The translations under genes were made by a program, and so were the position numbers. Of a stretch of DNA of 60,972 nt, positions 2,587 through 59,157 are shown one piece after another. Position 1 is the stretch's first letter. Every line of letters begins with the position of its first letter. The notes beneath the pieces were generated by a model that made no database searches, was not told where the DNA came from, and saw only the letters and a list, made by a program, of their open reading frames with translations. Source of the stretch: a virus (Duplodnaviria > Caudoviricetes); the IMG/VR virus record IMGVR_UViG_3300027852_000043, positions 1-60,972 of that record; one strand, 5' to 3'.

Positions 2587-2668
2587 CGGGGACGGCGGGA
2601 GTTGAACCCGCAAAATAAAGAAGGGCCACAAACACCTTCCGCGGTAACCAATCCCCCGCTACATCCCC
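2587..2668 (-). tRNA. tRNA-like gene with a non-canonical anticodon loop (pseudo-tRNA, isotype undetermined)
   Basis: Acceptor GGGGATG/CGTCCCC, D-stem GCGG/CCGC, stem GAAGG/CCTTC with 10-nt loop TGTTTGTGGC, T-arm GCGGG-TTCAACT-CCCGC; no encoded CCA. Confidence 0.75.
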
Positions 2669-21007: not shown

Positions 21008-21841
21008 TTGCAATGTTTTTACCATAGTGCGGATTTAGATGGCCATTGTTCAGGGGCGCTAATAAAAATGGTTCACCTGGATTGCAAAATGATCGGGATA
21101 GATTATGGTGATGTTTTCCCATGGGACACAATAAAACAGGACGAACCTGTTTTCATGGTTGATTTTAGTTTACAGCCGTTCGAGGATATGGAAAAACTGA
21201 ATAAAACCTCATGTTTGACGTGGATAGATCATCACAAATCAGCGATAGAGTCGGCTCACACAAGAGGGTTTTTGGCAAACGCGCAGGCTTTGGAGGTCGG
21301 TAAAGGGGCGTGCCAGTTGGTGTATGAGTTTTTGCATCCAAATAAGCCTATCCCTACATTTGTTAAGCTACTGGCAGAATATGATGTGTGGGATCACTCC
21401 GATCCACGGACACTCGCGTTCCAGTACGGTATGAGACAGCAAAAAGATACCTCCCCGGAAAACATTGAATTTTGGATGGGCCTGTTTGATACCGAAAGGG
21501 TAATGCGGATCACTGAGGACGGCGGGATTATCCTGGATTACCAAAATACGGAAAATGGAAAATACGCGTTTGCATGTGCTTTCGAGACGGAATTGGATGG
21601 GTTGAAATGTATCGCAATGAATAAAATGCTCACTAACTCTAAGGTCTTCGACTCAGTGTGGGACAAAGAGCAGTATCAAGCAATGCTATTGTTTGGTTTC
21701 CGCAAGGGGTCTTGGACGGTAAGCTTATATTCCGACCGGGAAGATGTTGACGTGTCTGCAATTGCAAAAGCAAGGGGAGGCGGAGGGCATAAAGGGGCCG
21801 CTGGGTTTCAATGTGATGAATTACCGTTTTCTTTAAAATAA
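21008..21841 (+). CDS. DHH/DHHA1 phosphoesterase
   Basis: YHSADLDG, VDFS, WIDHHKSA, GGGGHKGAAGF. Confidence 0.92.
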   Translation: MQCFYHSADLDGHCSGALIKMVHLDCKMIGIDYGDVFPWDTIKQDEPVFMVDFSLQPFEDMEKLNKTSCLTWIDHHKSAIESAHTRGFLANAQALEVGKGACQLVYEFLHPNKPIPTFVKLLAEYDVWDHSDPRTLAFQYGMRQQKDTSPENIEFWMGLFDTERVMRITEDGGIILDYQNTENGKYAFACAFETELDGLKCIAMNKMLTNSKVFDSVWDKEQYQAMLLFGFRKGSWTVSLYSDREDVDVSAIAKARGGGGHKGAAGFQCDELPFSLK

Positions 21842-24705: not shown

Positions 24706-25437
24706 ATGCATAACAAAAACTCAATTATAGAGGTCATAGAACATCCGTACTCGGAATTGTTGTACCAAGCGCGGTATGACGAGGCCGTGGTAACAGGCCA
24801 ACCGATGGTAGAGCGGCCCTTCTGGTTCCGAAACACCGAAACCGGGCAGCTCTTCCACGATTTATACAGTTGTCTTGGGTGGCCGACCGAGGTCACCGAC
24901 AAAGACGAGGGGATGCCAGGCTATACAGCGGTAGTCGGAGTCGTCAGGCCGGACGAATCGATGGAGCAGTACAACCCGATTAACGCAGATTTCCAATTAT
25001 TAGCAGAGGCCGAAGCCCGGGACGTGCAAGTCTTGATCGCCCACGCGCTTCAAATGCGGGAAAGATATGGGTTTGGGCTGGATTCAGAACTATTGAAATG
25101 CTGTTATGGCGACCCGGAAAGGTTTATCATGACATTGGCGCTTAGAAATGAACAGCTCGGAGAAAAGCAGGCGTTGACTATCACGCCTCCGATTGACCTA
25201 TATAGCCCGTCCGTGTTCGACAATTATTTACGGAGCCTGAAATCGTGTCTACTGAAAAACCAGCTCAGGTTTTATTTTGGGGGATGCAATATCTTAAAAG
25301 ATCACCTTCGAGAATTCAGGAAAAACAATCCGGCTGTCATGGCAATAGGCGGGTTAGTCCATAGCCTGCTCGTACAGTGCTCCTGGATGACCGAATTAGG
25401 CCAGGGGATCTTCAACCTTGAGGAAAATTATGGATAA
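24706..25437 (+). CDS. Hypothetical protein between TerL and portal
   Basis: 243-aa ORF; possibly an RNase-H-like fold. Confidence 0.7.
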   Translation: MHNKNSIIEVIEHPYSELLYQARYDEAVVTGQPMVERPFWFRNTETGQLFHDLYSCLGWPTEVTDKDEGMPGYTAVVGVVRPDESMEQYNPINADFQLLAEAEARDVQVLIAHALQMRERYGFGLDSELLKCCYGDPERFIMTLALRNEQLGEKQALTITPPIDLYSPSVFDNYLRSLKSCLLKNQLRFYFGGCNILKDHLREFRKNNPAVMAIGGLVHSLLVQCSWMTELGQGIFNLEENYG

Positions 25438-25702
25438 TTTGACACTCGTATTGGTAATAGCAGGCAGTATGTTTTTGTTTGCAGCCCTGATCATCATTTC
25501 AACGATTGTGGGCGGGTGGCTTGTGTTTAAGGGTAGTAAGAGCGCCCAGTCGTCCGAGCCCTTCCTGGGGAGGGATAGTAGCCCCGGGGCGTATTCAATC
25601 AATGTAGACGGGCAAGACTTTCCGGGTCAGGAAACAGACGAAAATGAAGAGCATATCCTAAAGAAGACAGAGACGTTCTTGAAATCATTAGGGGGGAGAT
25701 AA
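25430..25702 (+). CDS. Membrane protein
   Basis: Long N-terminal hydrophobic helix. Confidence 0.65.
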   Translation: MDNLTLVLVIAGSMFLFAALIIISTIVGGWLVFKGSKSAQSSEPFLGRDSSPGAYSINVDGQDFPGQETDENEEHILKKTETFLKSLGGR

Positions 25703-25704
25703 AG

Positions 25705-26016
25705 GTGTCTGATGTTAAGCGCACAGAGATTTGGGGGTGTAGCCGAAGGAATGCCAAGGAAATGACTCTGAGCTTTGATACGATAACTATAACCGCAGCC
25801 GAGGTGGGATTCCTGCAGGGCGGTAACAAACTCTTTTCAATGGAGATTACGCCTTCTTTTGAGACGGGAGGTATATTGGTCATAAAAGTTGCTGAAGGCA
25901 AGACAATACTAACGCTTGGCGATGTAGTAACGATTGTAGGAGGCGAAAATGATAGGTCTGGACGTCCAGTGCCCACAATGCCGACGGGTGATGCACACCA
26001 CTACCCCGCTGTATAA
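25705..26016 (+). CDS. Hypothetical protein
   Basis: GGGAG RBS with GTG start. Confidence 0.5.
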   Translation: MSDVKRTEIWGCSRRNAKEMTLSFDTITITAAEVGFLQGGNKLFSMEITPSFETGGILVIKVAEGKTILTLGDVVTIVGGENDRSGRPVPTMPTGDAHHYPAV

Positions 26017-26398
26017 TCCGGAAAAGACAGCCAAAGGCAACATGGTTGAACTGCTGCCCAAATGGAAAAAACGAGGATGGCGGACGTTCTACGGTGGAGG
26101 AGGCGGCACAACACCTGCGGCAGCTATGCAGTGCCCTCATTGCTCAGGGAGGTTGGCGCCGTCCGGGAAATTAAGGATTAAGCCTGCGCCTGTGCCGGAG
26201 CTAACACAGGCACAGAAGAATCAAGCGATTATTGATGAGAGTTTTAAGTTGGAGCCCGAACCGCAAGCCCAGGATGTCCAGCAGAAAATCCGGGCTCAAG
26301 ATACTATCTTCACATGCGAGTCTTGCGGTAGGCAGATAAGGGGCATTGTTGGGTTTAAATCGCACGAGAAAGCATGTAAGGTGGCTAATAATGGATGA
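25949..26398 (+). CDS. Zinc-finger protein
   Basis: CPQC, CPHC and C-terminal CESC...H...C. Confidence 0.7.
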   Translation: MIGLDVQCPQCRRVMHTTTPLYNPEKTAKGNMVELLPKWKKRGWRTFYGGGGGTTPAAAMQCPHCSGRLAPSGKLRIKPAPVPELTQAQKNQAIIDESFKLEPEPQAQDVQQKIRAQDTIFTCESCGRQIRGIVGFKSHEKACKVANNG

Positions 26399-28316
26399 AA
26401 AATGGTCCCTTGAAACCCTACCTCCGAAAGGTCACAAAGACGTGGCCCCATTTTGCCTTGGCCTGTTTGATATAGCAAAAGCAGAGAAGGAGCGGCTAAA
26501 GAAGAATGAGGACGGGATCGCAAATTACAGCCTGTACCGTGGAAAATCACCAGCAGGCCAGGTGTCGAGGATCAAAAACCCTGTGAACCTGTATTTTTCA
26601 AACGTAGAGAGAACCGTGGCAAACATCACAAGTCGGAATCCGACTGGCGAGGTTGTCGATTTGGATGGGGTAGATGACGATGCTGAAAAAGTTCTGTCGG
26701 CCTGGTTACTCAAGTGGTGGAAAGATACAGGGCAGAGGGAGAAGACAAAAAAGTCAGGCCGAACGATGGAAGTTTACGGCGTGACGGTCGAAAAGCCCGG
26801 CTGGGATAAAGAGAAGGCCCGGCCCCACATCCGAGTTGAAGATCCTTTTGCATGGTTCCCGGCACCAGGTAGGTGGGAAAACGCACCCTTGGAAATGCCG
26901 TTTATGTGTTTTGTGTATCTCGATTATATTGACAAGGTTGAGTCGGAATATAAAGTCAAGGACATTGCGGAAGAAGACGCTTACACTCTATTGGGGGCTA
27001 TCAGGGAAGAGTATCAATCTGATTTTTCTGCAGAAAGTTTTGGTAATTACGCTACGCCAATAACGGCGGGGTCTAAAGCGCAGGGCACAGAAAAGAAGAT
27101 CGAACGGTGTCTAAAAATTGAAGTCTGGATGAGGGACAAAAGGACTAAGATAGTTACAACCGAAGAGCCGATGCTTGACGAGGAAACCGGGGAGATAGTG
27201 GTTAATGAACAGGGCGCGCCCTTAGTATGCAAAACCACAGAAAAGGTCCCGGTTTACCCGGATGGAGTAAGGGTCGTAACCATTGTTGCAGCCAAAGAGG
27301 GCACGGGCCAACATGACGGATACATGGTCCTGGAAGATTGCGCCAACCCAAACATAAACCCACTGGTTTCCACAGAATTGACGTCCAAAACTCATCCATG
27401 GAAGCGGTTCCCAATGTATTATGCTAATTCTTATGACGATCTGGTAACGGTGTGGGGGTTTTCAGCAGGGGAACAGGTCGGGGATTTAATACAGTATATC
27501 AATAAAATCATAGTCAAATTAATAGCTTATGTTATTAATGTGGTAGTACCGCCTTTGATCGTCCAGAAACACTGCGGGATCAAGCAATCAGATATTGAGT
27601 CTTGCCTCGAGAAAGGGGGGAGGTTGTTGTTAATGCCGAACATCCCCAACGCCCGCATCGAATTCATGCAAATACCCAATCTGCCGGCCACTTTCTTCCA
27701 GGTATTAGATCTTCTTGTCAGGTTTTTTGACAGGGTTTATGCCATGGAGGAAGCAGATCGAGGACAGGCCCCGAAAGGTGTTATCGCGGCTGCGGCAATT
27801 ATGGCGCTCCAGGAGAGGAACCAGGCACTTATGCAGCCCAAAACTGCGTCAATAGAATTTTTGGCAGAAAGCAGGTCAAAGTGGGCGATTGGGCTAATTC
27901 AGAATTTTGGGAGTAAAATGGAGTCTGTCGAGGTAGGGGATGAGCCTCGGGAATTCATAGGCGCGAATTTCATTGGCAGGCAGTTTGGGTATATCGTTGA
28001 AACCGGAAGCACAATGCCGAGAACATCTCTACAATTACAAGAGATAGCCCCGACCCTGTTTGAGGGCGGTCTCGTTGATAGACGGGCAGCATTGGAAATG
28101 TTGGGGATTCCTGATTGGCAAAACATCGTAGAGAGGATGGGCGAGACGGAGCTTGATCAGGCGCTACAAGTTTTGATAGAATCCGGGTTGCCTGAAGAGG
28201 AAGCGACGAGGTTACACCAATACTTAATACAGCCAGGCCAGGGCGTCGGTGGCTCGAAGACGGAGGAAACTGAATCACAGAAAGCCTCGGGTCCGGGTGT
28301 GCCGAAGGCGGTTTAA
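26391..28316 (+). CDS. Portal protein
   Basis: About 640 aa after the terminase; NP.NLYFSNVERTVA; G..P.GV.AAAAIMALQE; podovirus-type portal layout. Confidence 0.85.
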   Translation: MDEKWSLETLPPKGHKDVAPFCLGLFDIAKAEKERLKKNEDGIANYSLYRGKSPAGQVSRIKNPVNLYFSNVERTVANITSRNPTGEVVDLDGVDDDAEKVLSAWLLKWWKDTGQREKTKKSGRTMEVYGVTVEKPGWDKEKARPHIRVEDPFAWFPAPGRWENAPLEMPFMCFVYLDYIDKVESEYKVKDIAEEDAYTLLGAIREEYQSDFSAESFGNYATPITAGSKAQGTEKKIERCLKIEVWMRDKRTKIVTTEEPMLDEETGEIVVNEQGAPLVCKTTEKVPVYPDGVRVVTIVAAKEGTGQHDGYMVLEDCANPNINPLVSTELTSKTHPWKRFPMYYANSYDDLVTVWGFSAGEQVGDLIQYINKIIVKLIAYVINVVVPPLIVQKHCGIKQSDIESCLEKGGRLLLMPNIPNARIEFMQIPNLPATFFQVLDLLVRFFDRVYAMEEADRGQAPKGVIAAAAIMALQERNQALMQPKTASIEFLAESRSKWAIGLIQNFGSKMESVEVGDEPREFIGANFIGRQFGYIVETGSTMPRTSLQLQEIAPTLFEGGLVDRRAALEMLGIPDWQNIVERMGETELDQALQVLIESGLPEEEATRLHQYLIQPGQGVGGSKTEETESQKASGPGVPKAV

Positions 28317-28325
28317 GGAGTTTAG

Positions 28326-28589
28326 ATGCCGGTATATGAGTTCCAATGTGAGTGTGGGAAGATATCTGAGGGAATATTCAAGGTAACTGATTCCCCTGAA
28401 AGCATTGAATGTCCTTGTGGTAACAGGGCGAAGAAAATCCTCTCTATCGGGGCAATAGAAACTGATACCAAAGTGAAATGGATGCCCTCGGCAAGCAATA
28501 TCCTTACAAGGGGTTATGAACGCCCGATAGAGACCAGAACGGAATACCGGGCGTATCTCAAGGAGAATAATTTAGAGCCGAAAGCATAA
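28326..28589 (+). CDS. FmdB-like zinc-ribbon protein
   Basis: MPVYEFQCECG...CPCG..AKKILS. Confidence 0.85.
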   Translation: MPVYEFQCECGKISEGIFKVTDSPESIECPCGNRAKKILSIGAIETDTKVKWMPSASNILTRGYERPIETRTEYRAYLKENNLEPKA

Positions 28590-28792
28590 TCAAATTGTAG
28601 GCAGAAAACCATAAGCCAGTGCAAAATGGATAAACGCACTAAGACTGCGCTGTTTTGCAATGGCTTTTTTATTGGAGTTGCGGGGCCTGAAAGGGATAAC
28701 CCCGTAACATGCTTTAAACACTTTAGATTTCCGGGATAACCAGGAGAGACCCTGCGGGGGCAATCTTGAATGGCCTTGAAAGGAGAAACGAG

Positions 28793-29545
28793 ATGGCAGA
28801 AGACAAGGGTGTGGAAGGGCAAGCGGCGGAAGGTACCGAGGATAAAAACTATCTTGGGAATTGGAAAACTGAAGAACAGGCGAAAGAAGGGCTGGGGCAT
28901 CTTGAAGCAAAGCTCGCTGAACAAGGTAACGAGGTGGGTTATTTGCGGAAGGAGGTCGAGGGGCTTAGAAATAGACCAGCCCCGCTTCCCCCTACTCCTG
29001 AGCCTGAAGTCCCTGATTATGCTGAGGAAATAAGCGCTATCCAAGGCAAGATAGTGGACCTCGACCCTGATGATGTGGGCTACCAGAAAACCCTGGCCGG
29101 CTTACTTAGCCAGTCGAATGCTCTTATCGCGGAGGCGTCCAAGGCAGCGACTTTGACCGAGGCTACAAGGGTGTTCAAAACAGAGCTTGATGAGAGGGAC
29201 ACCCAAGCTATCGAGTCAGCCTTCCACAAGAATAACCCTGATTTCAATACACCAGAAATACAGAGGCAAATTGAAGAGCGCATGAATCTCGACCCAACAG
29301 GTATGACCGACGCACTTGTGGCGTATCGGGAGTTGGAAAGAGATAATGCCACTAATAGGGCAACCCAGCTTGAAGAAGAGAACGCCGAGCTGAAAAGGTT
29401 GGCTACCGTCTCTGAAGGTGCAAACCAGACGGGCAAGGTGGAGGTGACAGGGGGAGCGAGCCCTCCTCTACCACCTGCACAGCCTAAGCTAACAGGCGAT
29501 GCCCTCCATGCTGCGATGTTGAAGGCAGCGCAGGAAGCGGCATGA
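28793..29545 (+). CDS. Capsid scaffolding protein
   Basis: Acidic coiled coil directly upstream of the capsid gene; QGNEVG.LRK. Confidence 0.75.
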   Translation: MAEDKGVEGQAAEGTEDKNYLGNWKTEEQAKEGLGHLEAKLAEQGNEVGYLRKEVEGLRNRPAPLPPTPEPEVPDYAEEISAIQGKIVDLDPDDVGYQKTLAGLLSQSNALIAEASKAATLTEATRVFKTELDERDTQAIESAFHKNNPDFNTPEIQRQIEERMNLDPTGMTDALVAYRELERDNATNRATQLEEENAELKRLATVSEGANQTGKVEVTGGASPPLPPAQPKLTGDALHAAMLKAAQEAA

Positions 29546-29568
29546 GCTGACAATAAGGAGGCAATAAA

Positions 29569-30546
29569 ATGTCCTTACTAAACCAGTTAAACGCAACCAC
29601 GACAGTGAAATGGTTGAATACAACCCCCGAAGACATCCTTAACACAGCATCCGCCCTCGTTTGGAAATTGATGGGGAATGCTGTTAAGCGGGGTAATTGG
29701 GCGGTACAGCCCAGTGAGACAGTTGATGGCGGGAAAATGGTAGAGGTTCCGATTGAGTATGCAAACAGTAACTCTGGCCAGTACGGAGCCGATACGGTTA
29801 TCAGCATTGATAAAGTGGACCTCTTCGATGCTGCTCGGTTCGGGTGGGCAGGTGTTCATGGTGCCAACACCCTGAACCTGGACGATCTCACCCAAAATAC
29901 CGGCGGAAACGTTATCGTCAGGTTGACAGACAAGTATATCGATTCCATCAAGAAGGCTGCCAGAGTACAAATGGCTGCTGATGTGATTGCAGCGTCAACA
30001 GGCGTTGATTATCATATCAACGGTCTGGGTGATCTGTTTAATACCAATACTGCCATAGCATATGGAAGCATTACCGAAGCAGAAATGGCAAATTGGAAGG
30101 CAAACGTGATTACCACAAATGCGGAGATCTGCTTTGAGGTAATGCAAAAGATCTTCCGGGAGCCGGACATGGGAGGTTTCGCTGGGGCTCTCCCGAATTT
30201 CTGTGTCACGACCCAGGCCCTTCTGGACGGGTATGAGAGGACCTTGCAGCCTCAACAGTGGTATTCCGATAAGGATATGGTGTCTGCCGGGTGGGCGAAT
30301 GTTTGGCATAAAGGTGCGCCGATTGTTGCGGATAAGGGGGTTGGATCGACATCGCTTTATGCGTTGAACCTCAATTTCCTGAGTTTGAGAGCGCATGAAA
30401 AGTACAATTTCACCACACCTGTCTGGGCACCTGTATCAGTGCAGAAGCCAGATACCATCACCGCGAACACCAGGTTCAGGGGTAATCTGTACTGCACGAA
30501 TCGGCGTATGCATGCTTTACACAGCAACCTGTCAGAACCGACGTAA
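29569..30546 (+). CDS. Major capsid protein
   Basis: 325 aa; GG..VEVPIEY, INGL, YE..LQPQ, LY.LN.NFL; position after scaffold. Confidence 0.85.
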   Translation: MSLLNQLNATTTVKWLNTTPEDILNTASALVWKLMGNAVKRGNWAVQPSETVDGGKMVEVPIEYANSNSGQYGADTVISIDKVDLFDAARFGWAGVHGANTLNLDDLTQNTGGNVIVRLTDKYIDSIKKAARVQMAADVIAASTGVDYHINGLGDLFNTNTAIAYGSITEAEMANWKANVITTNAEICFEVMQKIFREPDMGGFAGALPNFCVTTQALLDGYERTLQPQQWYSDKDMVSAGWANVWHKGAPIVADKGVGSTSLYALNLNFLSLRAHEKYNFTTPVWAPVSVQKPDTITANTRFRGNLYCTNRRMHALHSNLSEPT

Positions 30547-30611
30547 CAGGTGAAATAAACCTTCAACAAAAGCAGGGGGGGGCATAACCCCCTTGTTTTA
30601 GAGGTGATATT

Positions 30612-32123
30612 ATGGGGGAGAGAGTAAAAACGGTGGGCGGTAATAGGGCAAACCGCCCCGTATCAGAGTTTCAACAAAACATTGCCGGTACTGAGTATTA
30701 TGTTGGGCCAAATGCGTCACTGGTCGGTGATGATGACCGTACCGGGAAGTCGAAAAAAGCTTCGCTTGCGACATGGGCAGAAGCGATTGACCGTGCGGAT
30801 GCGGACAAGAACGATATTATTTACCTTTTACCGGGGCATGCGGAGACATTTGCCACAGCGGCCGCAGTCAATATAAACAAAGCTGGTATTCGGACTATCA
30901 ATCTGGGCGTTGGCGCGCTTGCGGCTACATTTACATTTAGCGCTGTGGATGCAACCGTCACCATGACGGCAGCTTCTTGCACCATTGAAGGTAAACCTAT
31001 ATTCAAGCCTTCTATTGATTCTGTCGTTTCACCTATCGTGGTGAGTGCCGCTGATTGCAAGCTTGACGTTGAGGTTCAGGATGCCAGCGCAACGGTCGAA
31101 TGTGTCAACGCAATCTTGACCACAGCAGCCGCAGACAGGCTCGATGTCAACCTAAAATACCGGGGGTTCATTGCCGGTAATGCCTGCGTCAATGCGATCA
31201 GGCTGGTTGGGGTAGACACTGCGAGAATCTACGTTGATTTTTACGGTGTGGCGTCAACTTCAATCGTTGAATTCCATACCACAGCTTGTCATGACATAGA
31301 CATCAAGGGCAAGTTCTACAACGATGGAACAAGCCTTACCAAGAATGTTGTGGATACGGCAACGGGGTCAACGTGGTCCGCCCAGGGTTGGGATGGGAAT
31401 TCAAACGCCAACTTTTCCGGCGGCGATAATTCCGCTCTGGCAAGTGATGATGGTTCAGCGATTGCGGCCCAAACGACAAAAATTGATGCAGCAACCTTAG
31501 CAGTTGCTCCTACCGCCAATTCGCTTGCGGCCTTTATTGCTTCGGGCGGAACCGCACTCGGGCAAGAGTTGCCTGACAGTCAGTCCTTAATCGATTTGAT
31601 TGGGGACTATACAGGGCCTCATGATGGCGCTGTCCAGGACGACAACATTAAGGCCTCGCTTGATCTTTTGCATACTCATGCGGACGCTACGCCACAATGT
31701 GTAGAGAAAAGCGATGGAGCCGTGCTTACTGGCCTTGATCCTCTTTTCACAATCACTGGTGGACCTGTCAGGTGCAAGATAGTTGGGCATGTCACAACTA
31801 TAATCGGTGGGGCAACGAACTTGAGGCTTCAGCATATCACGACAGACCCAGCGGCGACAGTCGATCTTAATGCTGGGGCAGTTGCGGCCGACAATGACGC
31901 GGTTGGTACGGTTTACCATAATCTTGGGGCAACCAGTGTTTTCACTCCGTCAGGCGGGCTTGGCTTTGTTTTGCTCGATCCTGTTACGGTCGAAGAGACT
32001 GAATTTGTTCTTGCTCCTGGGGTGGTGCAATGCCTTGGGTCTGCCGCGCAAACCGGAGTAATTAAGTGGTATATGACTTATGAGCCATGTTCTCCGAGTA
32101 GCGCAGTTGTGGCCGCAGCGTAA
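30612..32123 (+). CDS. Virion structural/decoration protein (beta-helix-like N-terminus)
   Basis: YYV...DD..G...SLAT..EAI...DIIYLLPGHAE; follows the capsid gene. Confidence 0.7.
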   Translation: MGERVKTVGGNRANRPVSEFQQNIAGTEYYVGPNASLVGDDDRTGKSKKASLATWAEAIDRADADKNDIIYLLPGHAETFATAAAVNINKAGIRTINLGVGALAATFTFSAVDATVTMTAASCTIEGKPIFKPSIDSVVSPIVVSAADCKLDVEVQDASATVECVNAILTTAAADRLDVNLKYRGFIAGNACVNAIRLVGVDTARIYVDFYGVASTSIVEFHTTACHDIDIKGKFYNDGTSLTKNVVDTATGSTWSAQGWDGNSNANFSGGDNSALASDDGSAIAAQTTKIDAATLAVAPTANSLAAFIASGGTALGQELPDSQSLIDLIGDYTGPHDGAVQDDNIKASLDLLHTHADATPQCVEKSDGAVLTGLDPLFTITGGPVRCKIVGHVTTIIGGATNLRLQHITTDPAATVDLNAGAVAADNDAVGTVYHNLGATSVFTPSGGLGFVLLDPVTVEETEFVLAPGVVQCLGSAAQTGVIKWYMTYEPCSPSSAVVAAA

Positions 32124-32153
32124 CCTTTTTAAACGAATAGGAGGTATTTTAAG

Positions 32154-32540
32154 ATGATTAGAATAGACTTAGTGATCCCGGTCGCTGCAACTACTGCCGA
32201 TGATTTTTTCTATCCGGTGTCAGCCGTAGGAAATGTCTCGGAGGTTATCGCTGTGTACGACCAGGAAACCGATTTGGATGAAACAATAACTGTCAGCAGG
32301 GGGACAACAGCCGTAAACCTATGCACTCCGCCTGCCGATGCAACGGCGGAAGGAACTTCGTTTACAGGTGTGCCTGATACCACCAATAAAGCGTTGCTCT
32401 TCGACCCTGCTTCTACCACTGTGGCCAACCGGGTGTTGAAAATATCAGTTCCCAACACCTTCGATACCGCAGGACATCTGGGTCTGAGTATCCTTTTTGA
32501 CGATACCGCTTATGTGGAACAGGCCGCACTTGAGGCGTGA
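32154..32540 (+). CDS. Small virion protein
   Basis: AGGAGG RBS; beta-rich. Confidence 0.65.
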   Translation: MIRIDLVIPVAATTADDFFYPVSAVGNVSEVIAVYDQETDLDETITVSRGTTAVNLCTPPADATAEGTSFTGVPDTTNKALLFDPASTTVANRVLKISVPNTFDTAGHLGLSILFDDTAYVEQAALEA

Positions 32541-32568
32541 TCCTCCCCTGTCGCATAGAAACTAACCA

Positions 32569-32604
32569 GCCTTAAGCGTCTGACAGGGGCGCTTAAGGCC
32601 TTCT
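32569..32604 (+). terminator. Stem-loop after the capsid cluster
   Basis: GCCTTAAGCG...CGCTTAAGGC followed by CTTCTT. Confidence 0.55.
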
Positions 32605-32617
32605 TGAGGGGTTACGA

Positions 32618-33556
32618 ATGCCCGATTTAGCCGAACTTATCGTAAGCGTAAAGGGTGTGATCCAGGACACCTCCTACTCTATTTCAGATATCATCACCAG
32701 GTTAAACGATGCTGTCGAAGCGGTAACCGCAGGCGTTTTTATGCCTAACAGGAGGGATGTTTCCCCTCCCCTTCCAGAGCTTTACCAATCTGATATAATA
32801 GCAACGACCGTCAATGCTTACGCTGATCTTCCCGCTACTTACCAGCGGGGTCTTTTTTATGTTTTGGACAGTAGCGGCGAAAAAGTAGGGATGCCAAGAG
32901 GTGGTAATTATTACGATTTTATGTTGTTCCTGAATAATTCAGATAAGAGAGATTTGACCGAAACGGGAGCTGTGCATACGGCCTGTGTGAAGGGCACGAT
33001 GCTTTATTATCAGGGGATACCATCGAGTAGCGCAGATTTAACGGTCATGTTTTATCGGAAACCTGTTGATATGGCAATTGACCAGGCAGTCTATAATTCG
33101 ACCACGATATCTTTTGCGGCTGCTACTGGTAATATTTCTGATTCAGGCAGTGGGTTAGCATCTTTCACTACCGATGGCGGTTTACTGGTATCTGGGTCAA
33201 CCTTGAACGACGGATATTATACAGTGTCGGCGGTTGACGTCGCTGGAGCATATATAACGGTCAATGAAGGGCTGACAAATGAAAGTGCAGGCAGTACGGT
33301 TTCGATCGTCCAATCTAACGACGAACCGGATGGCTTGCCTGTGCATCTGGCGAAAAAACTTGTTGCACATTATGTTTGCAAGGAAATTTTTGGGGAGGGA
33401 TTAGAAGACACTGAGACTGCCAGTGGAACCGCAGTCAAATATCATACTGGCAAATTCTATGAAGCCATGGAAAATATGGTTTTATTCATAGGTGAAGACG
33501 GGGAGCCACTTTATTATGGCGATTCAGGCTTTATAGATGGTGGAATTTGCGATTAA
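32618..33556 (+). CDS. Head-tail adaptor-like protein with an inserted beta domain
   Basis: L.ELI..V...IQD...I...LNDA; YRKPVDM...EPDGLP.HL. Confidence 0.65.
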   Translation: MPDLAELIVSVKGVIQDTSYSISDIITRLNDAVEAVTAGVFMPNRRDVSPPLPELYQSDIIATTVNAYADLPATYQRGLFYVLDSSGEKVGMPRGGNYYDFMLFLNNSDKRDLTETGAVHTACVKGTMLYYQGIPSSSADLTVMFYRKPVDMAIDQAVYNSTTISFAAATGNISDSGSGLASFTTDGGLLVSGSTLNDGYYTVSAVDVAGAYITVNEGLTNESAGSTVSIVQSNDEPDGLPVHLAKKLVAHYVCKEIFGEGLEDTETASGTAVKYHTGKFYEAMENMVLFIGEDGEPLYYGDSGFIDGGICD

Positions 33557-56970: not shown

Positions 56971-57342
56971 ATGCCAGGGAATGAAAGAGAGCTTAGGGTA
57001 ACAACGGTAATGGACGCAGAGGAAATAGCTGCCAGCGGAGATGCGGTGTCGACCTCGATAGACCAGACAGGCAAGAAGGGCAACTATTCTTTGCAGATAT
57101 TAGTGGAGGGAGATGGTACATGCAAGATAGAACAGGAAATCAGTAATGACAACGTAAGTTACGGCGAGCCGGAGGGGGCGGCCGATCTCTTCACCGGACT
57201 GACAAAGACGAGTGGGCCGGGGTCTGATGGTAAGGTTTTCAAGCAAGTCACGATAGACTTCGCAAATCGTGTCAGGTTAAAAGTTACTGAAACGGGTACA
57301 ACTGACAGCGTAACGGTGACGCTTAAACTGGCCATACAGTGA
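56971..57342 (+). CDS. Small beta-rich virion protein
   Basis: AGGAG RBS; jelly-roll-like composition. Confidence 0.6.
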   Translation: MPGNERELRVTTVMDAEEIAASGDAVSTSIDQTGKKGNYSLQILVEGDGTCKIEQEISNDNVSYGEPEGAADLFTGLTKTSGPGSDGKVFKQVTIDFANRVRLKVTETGTTDSVTVTLKLAIQ

Positions 57343-57368
57343 GGGTGGGCTGCTGAAGCCTGAAGGGG

Positions 57369-58331
57369 ATGTATAGCTATATGACCGGAAAATCCATAGA
57401 TGAACTCTTGATGGAACGGCGAACGATTGAGGACCTCATCAAGCAGAATTTCGAGCGCAAGCTGGCTATGCTATTTATTGACGTCTGGGGATACACCCAG
57501 TATGTCGAGACCAGAACAGCCGTCAATGGCCGGGCGATGCTCAAAGAGTTTTTCGATATCGTCAGCCCGATTATTGAAAAATACGCGGGTGTGCTGGTCA
57601 AGAAGATCGGCGATGAAGCTATGGTCGCGTTCACTTCGCCCGTATCAGCGGCACGGGCCTCCATCGCAATGCAGCAGGGGCTCGCTGAATATAACAGGCA
57701 GGTTACAAAGCAGAACCGGATACACGCAAAGATCGGGGTTGATTATGGCGAGGTCTTGGTTGAGGACAAAGACATACATGGAGACACAGTAAATGTGGCT
57801 TCTCGTGTGACGAGTCTGGCAGGCAAGGACCAGATATTGTTCACCGGGTTTGCATGGGTACCTACCCGAGACGTCGAAGGGGTTGTTTTCCGGGATTACG
57901 GGGTCGTTACACTGAAGGGCAAAGCGGAGCCTGTCAACCTCTACGAGCTGGTCTGGCGCGATGATAGAAGTCTACCCAGGGTAGGGCCACAAAAAGAAAC
58001 AGCGCCGCCAATACCTGCGGCTATTATCGAAAATGGCCAATTCGATTCCTTGACCAGGTACCTGGATTTGATCTATGATACACAGCGTCAACATGCTGCG
58101 ACTATCGGGAAGTTGTTTGACAAACTGGATGCGCAAGGGAAGGCTATCGCAAAATGTGAACCACGGCTCGATGCCTTGGAAAAGCTCACTTCCGAAGAGC
58201 TTAAACCTGCGGTAGAGGCCCACACAAAAAGTCTTTCCCGGATAACGGGGGCGCCTCTTTTTGTTAGTTTCCTTTTGGGTCTTGGCGCGTTATTGGCTAT
58301 GTTTTTAGCATGGTTTGGATTTAAGAATTAA
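57369..58331 (+). CDS. Class III adenylate/guanylate cyclase fused to a coiled coil and C-terminal TM helix
   Basis: AMLFIDVWGYT, VKKIGDEAM, KIGVDYG.V, DIHGDTVNVASR, LKGK; C-terminal LFVSFLLGLGALLAMFLAWF. Confidence 0.9.
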   Translation: MYSYMTGKSIDELLMERRTIEDLIKQNFERKLAMLFIDVWGYTQYVETRTAVNGRAMLKEFFDIVSPIIEKYAGVLVKKIGDEAMVAFTSPVSAARASIAMQQGLAEYNRQVTKQNRIHAKIGVDYGEVLVEDKDIHGDTVNVASRVTSLAGKDQILFTGFAWVPTRDVEGVVFRDYGVVTLKGKAEPVNLYELVWRDDRSLPRVGPQKETAPPIPAAIIENGQFDSLTRYLDLIYDTQRQHAATIGKLFDKLDAQGKAIAKCEPRLDALEKLTSEELKPAVEAHTKSLSRITGAPLFVSFLLGLGALLAMFLAWFGFKN

Positions 58332-58343
58332 GGAGGTGGTATC

Positions 58344-58562
58344 ATGGGGTTTTTAAAGTATTTGTCGTACATCGGAAAAGGAGCCAAGGTGATTAGTATT
58401 TTGGCCTTGGAGATTTCCAAAATTCTTGCCGATGGGAAAGTCACAGTTGGTGAGGCTATGGATTCATTTGAAAAAGCAGCAGGCGGGGCAGGCATGCCAC
58501 TTAAAATTGAAGTCCCTTATGAGATCAGGGAAATGTCAATGAGAGTGAAAGAGGTGAAATGA
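58344..58562 (+). CDS. Small protein (possible holin-like)
   Basis: AAGGAGG RBS; LADGKVT..E; end of the late operon. Confidence 0.55.
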   Translation: MGFLKYLSYIGKGAKVISILALEISKILADGKVTVGEAMDSFEKAAGGAGMPLKIEVPYEIREMSMRVKEVK

Positions 58563-58565
58563 GAT

Positions 58566-58754
58566 ATGGGAAAACATTTAATAATTATGCTTGAGTATGA
58601 TATGGGTGATTATTCTGACATGGAAGGCGATGGGCAAGAAATACCAACCGACCCAAACGATGTTGGGCTAAATGAATCATTTTATCAAGGTGAAGCCTCA
58701 AGACATGATATGCGTATTGTTGGGGTGAGAACTGAAGACAGGGAAGCCGTATGA
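58566..58754 (+). CDS. Hypothetical protein
   Basis: GAGGTG RBS. Confidence 0.5.
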   Translation: MGKHLIIMLEYDMGDYSDMEGDGQEIPTDPNDVGLNESFYQGEASRHDMRIVGVRTEDREAV

Positions 58755-58848
58755 CCTTAAACCCAATATCCGCGACCATAGACCCAGGGGCATTAACTGT
58801 CCTTCATGCGAAGGCCAACCTTGTTTCCCATTACAAGTTCTTCGGTTA

Positions 58849-59100
58849 TTACCAGTTGGGGTTTTTCTCATGTGCGTATTTATGAGCTGCATCTTTAGTA
58901 TCGAATACTTTATCGATAAAGTCAGACACGGGGGAAATTGAAGATAGAAACTTTTGTTTGTCAAAGTTTTCACCATCCCAATATGCAGCATCTGGAAAAT
59001 GGCCCTCCTCTGGTTCCCAACATATCAACACCGCATACCACCCTCTTTGTTTTGGCCTTGGGTCGTTGATATCATACACGCTAATGAATTCTGTATCCAT
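58849..59100 (-). CDS. Hypothetical protein
   Basis: GGGAG RBS; P...GWY.V. Confidence 0.6.
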   Translation of the reverse strand: MDTEFISVYDINDPRPKQRGWYAVLICWEPEEGHFPDAAYWDGENFDKQKFLSSISPVSDFIDKVFDTKDAAHKYAHEKNPNW

Positions 59101-59157
59101 TACTCCCTATTTTACTGAATTCCATATATTTGCTTCCAACCATACCGGTCTCCTTTT
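59101..59157. repeat. 57-bp perfect direct repeat (second copy 59975..60031)
   Basis: Contains the RBS and first 14 codons of the 59784..60017 gene. Confidence 0.9.

Follow-up and report, generated by a model that had tools for sequence, protein, structure and literature searches.

The cyclase gene and its protein

The DNA considered here is a virus record from IMG/VR (IMGVR_UViG_3300027852_000043; Duplodnaviria, Caudoviricetes) of 60,972 bp, and the whole of that record is what we call the window. CheckV puts its completeness at 100% and it is labelled 'linear'. Near its right end is a gene for a class III nucleotide cyclase, which is the subject of this analysis. Its genes fall into three strand blocks: - strand genes fill the first 12,860 or so positions, + strand genes occupy 13,011-58,754, and the remainder up to the window end is - strand once more. 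The + block contains methylases, a DnaD-like loader, the small and large terminase, portal, major head protein, head-closure and tail-spike-like genes. It ends with a very large polyvalent gene and then four small genes (123, 320, 72 and 62 amino acids (aa)), and the cyclase is the 320-aa one. The open reading frames (ORFs) of the window were scanned against Pfam (90 ORFs) and PHROGs (108 ORFs). The features of the cyclase gene are these:

57369..58331, + strand: cyclase gene as the longest ORF, 320 aa (ORF list)
57381..58331, + strand: probable true extent of the cyclase gene, 316 aa plus stop, from ATG 57381
57396..57449, + strand: N-terminal helix, residues 6-23, conserved across the cyclase clade (model confidence, pLDDT, >84)
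57453..57953, + strand: class III cyclase catalytic domain, residues 25-191 (Pfam, PDB, model, Foldseek and conservation)
57480-82, 57600-02 and 57612-14, + strand: catalytic codons of D34, K74 and D78 (motif and PDB alignment)
57771-73, 57792-94 and 57804-06, + strand: catalytic codons of D131, N138 and R142 (motif and PDB alignment)
57954..58037, + strand: proline-rich linker, residues 192-219, predicted to be disordered (pLDDT 43-54, no secondary structure)
58038..58247, + strand: two predicted helices, residues 220-256 and 260-289, possibly a coiled coil (low-confidence model, pLDDT 45-69)
58257..58313, + strand: C-terminal transmembrane (TM) helix, residues 293-311, with 5 residues after it (hydropathy and model)

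A Shine-Dalgarno-like run, GAAGGGG at 57362-57368, abuts ATG 57369 and is 12 nt before ATG 57381. The database gene call P0001 (316 aa) uses the latter start, and P0002, the closest relative, begins at the corresponding Met. ATG 57381 is the likely start rather than 57369. Because P0001 and P0002 start there, residues are numbered from it, and the numbers given are those of the 316-aa form. The gene stops at 58331. A preliminary description of this locus had run the feature on to 58562, but that end belongs to a separate 72-aa ORF with its own Shine-Dalgarno sequence.

Sequence and modelled fold alike identify the protein as a class III cyclase, and its active site is of the adenylate type. 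Pfam PF00211 matches residues 31-187 of the 320-aa ORF with 65.9 bits against a cut-off of 21.9 (E 4.5e-18). There are 28 distinct PDB sequences that match at E <= 0.01, with 3mr7 the best (E 1.4e-19), followed by Ma1120 and CyaB. A HMMER search of 1.84 billion representatives recovers 42,898 proteins at E <= 0.001, of which 64 reach E <= 1e-30. An AlphaFold2 model built from a 32-sequence alignment has a mean pLDDT of 82, rising to 96-99 across residues 11-190. The top Foldseek matches of this model are all class III cyclases at probability 1.00. CyaB, Ma1120, 3mr7, Rv1900c and Cya2 come in at E about 1e-13, with a TM score by target of up to 0.94 and a root-mean-square deviation of 1.2-2 A across about 165 residues. 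The N-terminal helix has the consensus IExLLRxRxxLDxxLxxxF in the same 32 sequences.

The preliminary description had claimed an intact catalytic set, and all six residues are indeed found and aligned to catalytic positions. D34 is in the motif FID, K74 and D78 are in VKKIGD, D131 is in DIHG, and N138 and R142 are in VNVASR with the canonical N-x-x-x-R spacing. We take D34 and D78 to be the metal-binding Asp residues, K74 and D131 the pair that reads adenine, and N138 and R142 the transition-state Asn and Arg. D34, D78 and R142 are invariant (32/32 aligned sequences), and K74, D131 and N138 are at least 90% conserved. K74 aligns to a Lys and D131 to an Asp in both 3mr7 and Ma1120. PDB titles for a 'KDA to EGY' mutant of Ma1120 point to the same positions as specificity residues. 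The residues present suggest that the cyclase is probably active and produces cyclic AMP (cAMP).

The rest of the protein is a linker, helices and a membrane helix. The C-terminal helix has a Kyte-Doolittle mean of 2.32 over 19 residues, the model places it at residues 293-311, and hydropathy finds no TM helix N-terminal to the catalytic domain. This appears to be a tail-anchored enzyme. There are Lys and Arg residues on the N-terminal side of the TM helix, so by the positive-inside rule the catalytic head should face the cytoplasm. A coiled coil of about 110 aa followed by a TM helix had been described here. The TM helix stands, while the coiled coil gives way to a disordered proline-rich linker of about 25 aa and then two low-confidence helices. 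The two predicted helices are conserved in P0002, and the TM helix is nearly identical there. A search with the C-terminal part alone (residues 201-320) against proteins of 66-210 aa gave nothing at E <= 0.01; this part has no Pfam family either, and Atlas gave just generic long-helix look-alikes. The domain, the residues and the terminal hydrophobic helix together bear out the earlier idea of a membrane-anchored phage class III cyclase of adenylate type.

The cyclase gene is real and kept by selection. Its sole close relative, P0002, is a 313-aa protein that is 85-86% identical and is encoded on L009, a metagenome contig of 4,445 bp. The window and L009 share 80.5% nucleotide identity over 985 nt, starting at 57389, just inside the cyclase gene. 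The homology continues past the cyclase stop and a GGAGGTG ribosome-binding site into the 72-aa ORF, of which 9 codons are covered before L009 ends. The Nei-Gojobori ratio of nonsynonymous to synonymous change (dN/dS) between the window gene and P0002 is 0.088 overall and also for the cyclase domain, with dS about 1. It is 0.074 for the linker and helices (residues 196-288) and 0.059 for the TM region (residues 289-316). Low dN/dS in every part implies purifying selection on the whole protein, C-terminal extension included.

Upstream of its cyclase L009 has an 805-aa ORF and a 106-aa MG2-like ORF, neither of which is homologous to the 123-aa ORF that precedes the cyclase in the window. The start of the 72-aa ORF is thus shared while the upstream genes differ, and we argue from this that the cyclase and the 72-aa ORF form a small mobile cassette.

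The end of the late operon

The neighbours of the cyclase gene are these:

49023..56913, + strand: polyvalent (ejection-type) gene, split into ORFs 49023-52031, 52025-52591 and 52591-56913
56971..57342, + strand: 123-aa ORF between the polyvalent gene and the cyclase, with an AGGAG ribosome-binding site; outside the conserved cassette
58344..58562, + strand: 72-aa ORF, probable cassette member, with GGAGGTG 5 nt before its ATG; 12 nt past the cyclase stop
58566..58754, + strand: 62-aa acidic ORF, last gene of the + block, with GAGGTGA 8 nt before its ATG; 3 nt past the previous stop

The cyclase ORF begins 457 nt past the LPD38 part of the polyvalent gene, and two genes of the + strand structural block come after it. 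None of the small ORFs could be assigned to a family. The 123-aa ORF has no Pfam or PHROG family, and the 62-aa ORF, which may or may not belong to the cassette, has no Pfam, PHROG or PADLOC family match. The 72-aa ORF has no Pfam, PHROG or PADLOC match either, and searches of the viral contigs and of the protein collection find no relative. Atlas feature matches connect it to small viral hypothetical proteins at a borderline score of 0.90. A complex prediction of the 72-aa ORF with the cyclase dimer returned 'no answer' (score 0.00), which is uninformative both ways.

The polyvalent gene consists of a 1002-aa ORF with RadC/JAB (RadC E 2.4e-15) and a 1440-aa ORF with LPD38 (E 2.3e-41). Between them is an overlapping 188-aa GIY-YIG-like ORF that matches the homing endonuclease family phrog_314 (E 7e-12). 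Rfam finds no intron. The gene is a single ORF of 2354-2478 aa in seven related phages. These are IMG/VR relatives found through the polyvalent C-terminus at 31-72% identity. That C-terminus is also 31.7% identical to Stx, Vibrio and Ralstonia podophage proteins (335 records). Large polyvalent proteins have been predicted to be packaged and injected (PMC5512222). Proteomics found the phi24B homologue, gp47 (LPD5/LPD1/LPD38), in virions, and an ejection role was proposed for it (bioRxiv 10.64898/2026.04.10.717836).

The cyclase is absent from 7/7 of the relatives, 5 of which are informative with 6 kb downstream; the other two contigs stop no more than about 1.2 kb from the polyvalent gene. No ORF in the seven resembles the 123-aa, 72-aa or 62-aa ORFs or the C-terminal part of the cyclase. 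What lies past the polyvalent gene is small ORFs and tail-fibre-like proteins (beta-helix, Calx-beta, CBM), and in the relative L006 a reverse transcriptase and then an endolysin. The cyclase is also absent from a related 62-kb contig binned with a Desulfobacterales metagenome-assembled genome (MAG), of which 60,000 of 62,336 bases were covered. The cyclase sits in a variable 3' end of the late operon that is a site of cargo genes and, in L006, of a lysis gene. As a separate observation, L006:7866-11072, right after the polyvalent gene, has a tail protein (phrog_5302) and then the reverse transcriptase (phrog_1423, E 1e-105). The arrangement resembles a diversity-generating retroelement that would act on the tail protein.

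The sole public run that contains this region is a DNA run labelled marine metagenome, possibly the source run; no RNA run is listed for it. Its Logan contigs cover 56400-57595, 57581-58241 and 58212-59130 with zero differences and no joints, at depths of 15.3, 11.8 and 13.4. Between them they connect the polyvalent gene through the 123-aa ORF to the cyclase, and the cyclase in turn through the 72-aa and 62-aa ORFs to the converging genes. A chimeric join with host DNA had been named as what could overturn the finding. It gains no support from these junctions, all bridged at similar depth, though this check uses what may be the source run and so is not independent of the original assembly; the L009 contig is independent. 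One 45-nt contig inside the cyclase gene (57566-57610) has a depth of 25.6, about twice its neighbours (15.3, 11.8), which suggests a second variant of the cyclase gene in the same sample.

The codon usage distance of the cyclase is 0.85, within the range of 22 other phage genes (0.58-1.19). We considered whether the gene has its own promoter. A 9-of-12 sigma-70-like site at 57302-57329 was rejected as evidence for one because 8 such sites were found where 4.3 +/- 2.0 are expected.

Several features lean towards a bacterial host. The window has a sigma-70 region 4 match and a DnaD-like loader (Pfam/PHROG), the polyvalent protein has bacterial relatives (above), and there are capsid matches in Desulfobacterales bins. 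In a comparison that covered the order to which a Desulfobacter MAG belongs, 3/301 genomes match the major capsid protein, at 68%, 53% and 26% identity. The 53% match is a 62-kb phage-like contig and not an integrated prophage. Across the head module at 24706-33556 (portal, scaffold-like, major head protein and neighbours) the identity to Methanosarcina virus MetMV (MK170447.1) is 37-55%; the host of MetMV was itself predicted in silico only (PMC7164591). A megablast of window positions 40000-60972 against 50,697 phage records gave no match.

Two other features of the window deserve mention. A 277-aa DHH/DHHA1-type phosphoesterase is at 21008-21841 (+ strand), just upstream of the terminase genes (phrog_4771, E 7e-39); its Pfam DHHA1 match is below cut-off and it has no PDB sequence match. 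The DHH/DHHA1 family includes cyclic-dinucleotide and nanoRNA phosphodiesterases. ARAGORN calls an 82-nt tRNA-Thr at 2587-2668 (- strand) with the anticodon TGT at position 39. This call is doubtful, since nothing in the window reaches the gathering score of an Rfam family, tRNA included.

A probable tethered cyclase and its alternatives

We think it fairly probable that this is a selected phage gene for a membrane-tethered, active adenylate cyclase. It would be mobile late cargo that likely steers host cAMP regulation, and belong neither to lysis nor to Pycsar. The data show the domain with its residues intact, the anchor, purifying selection and a different gene setting in the second phage. 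We infer the activity, product, dimer, topology, timing and purpose of the enzyme, and the scheme would run as follows. A single C-terminal helix would fasten the N-terminal catalytic head to the host membrane on its inner side. By analogy with other class III enzymes the protein would be a homodimer in which each active site is built from both subunits, and the N-terminal helix and the C-terminal helices may hold this dimer together. It is probably on whenever it is made because it lacks a sensor domain. The gene is probably co-transcribed with the structural block, from the 3' end of that block, late in infection. The enzyme would convert ATP to cAMP inside the infected cell. The cyclase and the 72-aa ORF would have moved between phages like moron-type cargo genes. 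The most likely use would be to push host cAMP-responsive regulation in the phage's favour.

Several points weigh against this scheme. An enzyme made late has little time to alter gene expression in a lytic cycle, and this weakens the purpose of rewiring the host. The adenine specificity is read from two residues of the sequence, K74 and D131. The role of the C-terminal helices comes from a low-confidence model and from two sequences. The GC content at third codon positions (GC3) of the catalytic domain is 0.62, about 2 standard deviations above the phage genes (0.46 +/- 0.07), which is at most a hint of foreign origin. Six profiles of the Pycsar cyclase PycC match weakly, the best at 33.5 bits (E 6.6e-9, residues 31-140 only), for which the PADLOC library supplies no cut-off. 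Finally, the MetMV-like head genes mean that the host may be archaeal, and no cAMP receptor can be named.

The PycC matches lead to another scenario, where an active enzyme makes something other than cAMP (cGMP, cCMP, cUMP or another cyclic nucleotide) and thereby acts as a decoy or interferes with host cyclic-nucleotide immunity. Pycsar cyclases share the fold, and cyclic-nucleotide signalling is a known battleground of phage and host (PMC9117128, PMC12657218). However, the K/D pair fits adenine-specific enzymes and the nearest solved structures are adenylate cyclases. The generic Pfam score is also twice that of the best PycC profile, and the PycC matches are partial. We consider this scenario unlikely.

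One can also imagine that the cassette is a conflict module for superinfection exclusion or anti-phage defence. It would derive from a family of cyclase-CHAT-TPR proteins, with the TM helix or the small ORFs as effector. The closest cellular relatives (about 43%) are N-terminal-cyclase proteins, most of them with CHAT (15/22) and TPR, and the CHAT/TPR architecture is typical of conflict systems. The cassette is mobile and lies in the variable end of the late operon. On the other hand, it has no CHAT, cyclic-nucleotide-binding or other effector domain, and the neighbours have no PADLOC match. One TM helix and two family-less ORFs of 72 and 62 aa are too little for an effector, and the tree does not settle where the phage pair branches. 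This makes a conflict module quite unlikely.

A third scenario gives the cyclase an envelope role at entry. Packaged or deployed alongside the polyvalent ejection protein, it would increase cAMP at an early stage of the following infection. In its favour are the short distance to the LPD38 polyvalent gene, the virion location of the phi24B homologue noted above, and the fact that 2/2 other viral cyclase loci adjoin tail-fibre or DNA-ejection genes. These are all arguments from position. On L009 the genes ahead of the cyclase are others, and a polyvalent gene is not seen there. It is also unlikely that a tail-anchored membrane protein would travel in the capsid. We regard this role as very unlikely.

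The preliminary description had put the cyclase at the position of a lysis module and likened it to small membrane proteins linked to lysis. Such a role, in which the protein would partner a holin or behave like an antiholin in the membrane while the cyclase served as its regulatory head, would suit the single C-terminal TM helix and the end of a late operon, and an endolysin ends the equivalent operon in L006. Yet the Pfam and PHROG scans recognise no holin, endolysin or spanin across the window. The C-terminal part has no homologues or holin match; an Atlas structural row for it, whose cluster is 17% Phage_holin_3_6, was under the bar. The idea that relatives might carry a gene with only the TM part at this locus was followed up in the seven relatives (5 informative), and there is none. 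A role in lysis or its timing is therefore highly improbable.

An assembly artefact or host DNA joined to a phage contig is next to impossible: the catalytic-domain GC3 is somewhat high, but phage genes lie on both flanks, the junctions are bridged without joints at similar depth (possibly in the source run), an independent contig carries the gene under purifying selection, and the best cellular match is only 42% identical.

A broader proposal can be made about the whole group. Phage class III cyclases might be envelope-associated takeover enzymes tied to the tail or ejection apparatus, with this one, encoded just past the polyvalent ejection gene, either delivered along with the ejected proteins or put at the site of entry, and flooding the cell with cAMP. 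We hold this to be improbable. If true, cAMP would shut out rival phages or prime the host, and a second messenger made by a virus would be a weapon and not a metabolic helper. The tethered late cyclase that we prefer has its own interest, for cyclic nucleotides are central to bacterial regulation and anti-phage immunity. The protein is short (316 aa) and sensor-free with all catalytic residues kept, and so it is a convenient test case for phage cAMP production during infection and its purpose.

Comparison with known cyclases

The solved cyclases 3mr7 (Silicibacter pomeroyi), Ma1120 (M. avium), CyaB (P. aeruginosa) and Rv1900c have the same fold and the same catalytic residues as the phage protein, with sequence E values from 1.4e-19 to 1e-6. 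Each is either a soluble domain or part of a protein that has a sensor or membrane module at its N-terminus. None of them is tail-anchored, unlike the phage protein.

The best cellular matches are 41-43% identical over residues 5-224 and are long bacterial proteins with the same N-terminal helix and cyclase. Among named genomes the best are from Desulfobacter (42%), Desulfobacula (41%) and other Thermodesulfobacteriota MAGs. We scanned 22 relatives and found CHAT in 15/22, TPR repeats in most and a CsgG-like region in 8/22. The cyclase-CHAT-TPR relatives (P0014-P0101; L011-L016) are mainly in Desulfobacterales and Calditrichia MAGs. Such proteins (P0014, 1056 aa; L011, L012) share the short N-terminal helix, the class III domain and the six catalytic residues with the phage protein. 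The phage protein has no CHAT, TPR or CsgG-like part (Pfam finds no CHAT domain in it at E <= 1) and has the linker, two helices and terminal TM helix instead. In a few short relatives (P0004, P0058) the cyclase is followed by a TM helix. A FastTree tree of 209 cyclase domains pairs the window protein with P0002 at support 100. Because this pair is on a long stem and the next node is unsupported (18), no donor can be named.

The Pycsar cyclase PycC belongs to the same superfamily and has the same fold. The phage protein differs in that it has an adenine-type K/D pair and no cyclic-nucleotide-binding partner effector. No Pycsar-type effector or cyclic-nucleotide-binding domain adjoins the cyclase or is found among the 90 window ORFs scanned, and the neighbours are without PADLOC, Pfam or PHROG match, in agreement with the earlier statement that no such effector is adjacent. 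Since the PycC match is weak and partial and there is no effector nearby, we argue that this is probably not a Pycsar system.

Nucleotide cyclases had been called unusual in phages, and this is overstated. A profile-guided scan of IMG/VR finds at least 377 stretches, among the 600 listed, that encode class III cyclase relatives, and there are PHROG families and annotated cultured phages with them. The direct searches found less. An exact-peptide scan of viral contigs with the cyclase gave no match, and tblastn against the 50,697 phage records gave 2. One of these is a 228-aa soluble cyclase in a 635-kb phage. The other, MT838110.1, was rejected as a phage example; it is GC-rich and bacterial-looking.

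The figures for architecture are for the best 80 viral cyclase loci (L101-L180) among the matches listed. TM helices precede the cyclase domain in 75 of these, and 52/58 of the complete ORFs are 565-600 aa with TM helices before the domain. Only 1 of the 80 has an N-terminal cyclase without TM helix, and 0 have the linker, helices and C-terminal TM helix of the window cyclase. A catalytic head with a C-terminal anchor is thus unseen in the best 80 viral cyclases as well as in the solved structures. The architecture is CHASE2-TM-cyclase in 6/7 loci scanned (e.g. L108:2789-4519 and L148:2810-4543). The 2 loci compared with PHROGs match phrog_35576 ('unknown function') at E 1e-114 or better. In Pelagibacter phage HTVC008M and Methylophilales phage Melnitz, members of this family bear the annotation adenylate/guanylyl cyclase (9 records). 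The window protein matches phrog_35576 by its cyclase part only (E 5.5e-5), and it has no CHASE2 match.

An adenylate cyclase was reported in curli (type VIII secretion, T8SS) clusters of pelagiphages in 2022 (PMC9599517). We infer its architecture from the HTVC008M match. This is the one paper found that reports such genes, and our literature searches turned up no functional study of any phage class III cyclase. There is a parallel in that the pelagiphage cyclases are beside CsgG curli genes (PMC9599517) and some of the cellular relatives above have a CsgG-like region. No curli genes are found among the window ORFs scanned against Pfam.

The phage CHASE2-cyclases are likewise phage-encoded, membrane-bound class III enzymes among structural, tail or ejection genes. 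Their identity to the window protein is just 22-33%, and their length is about 580 aa. They have an N-terminal TM helix, an outward-facing CHASE2 sensor, further TM helices and then a C-terminal cyclase, whereas the window protein is built otherwise. Phage cyclases as such were already known, and what is new here is an architecture and a clade among them. Membrane cyclases recur in uncultivated phage genomes, which makes them a class worth study and not a one-off curiosity.

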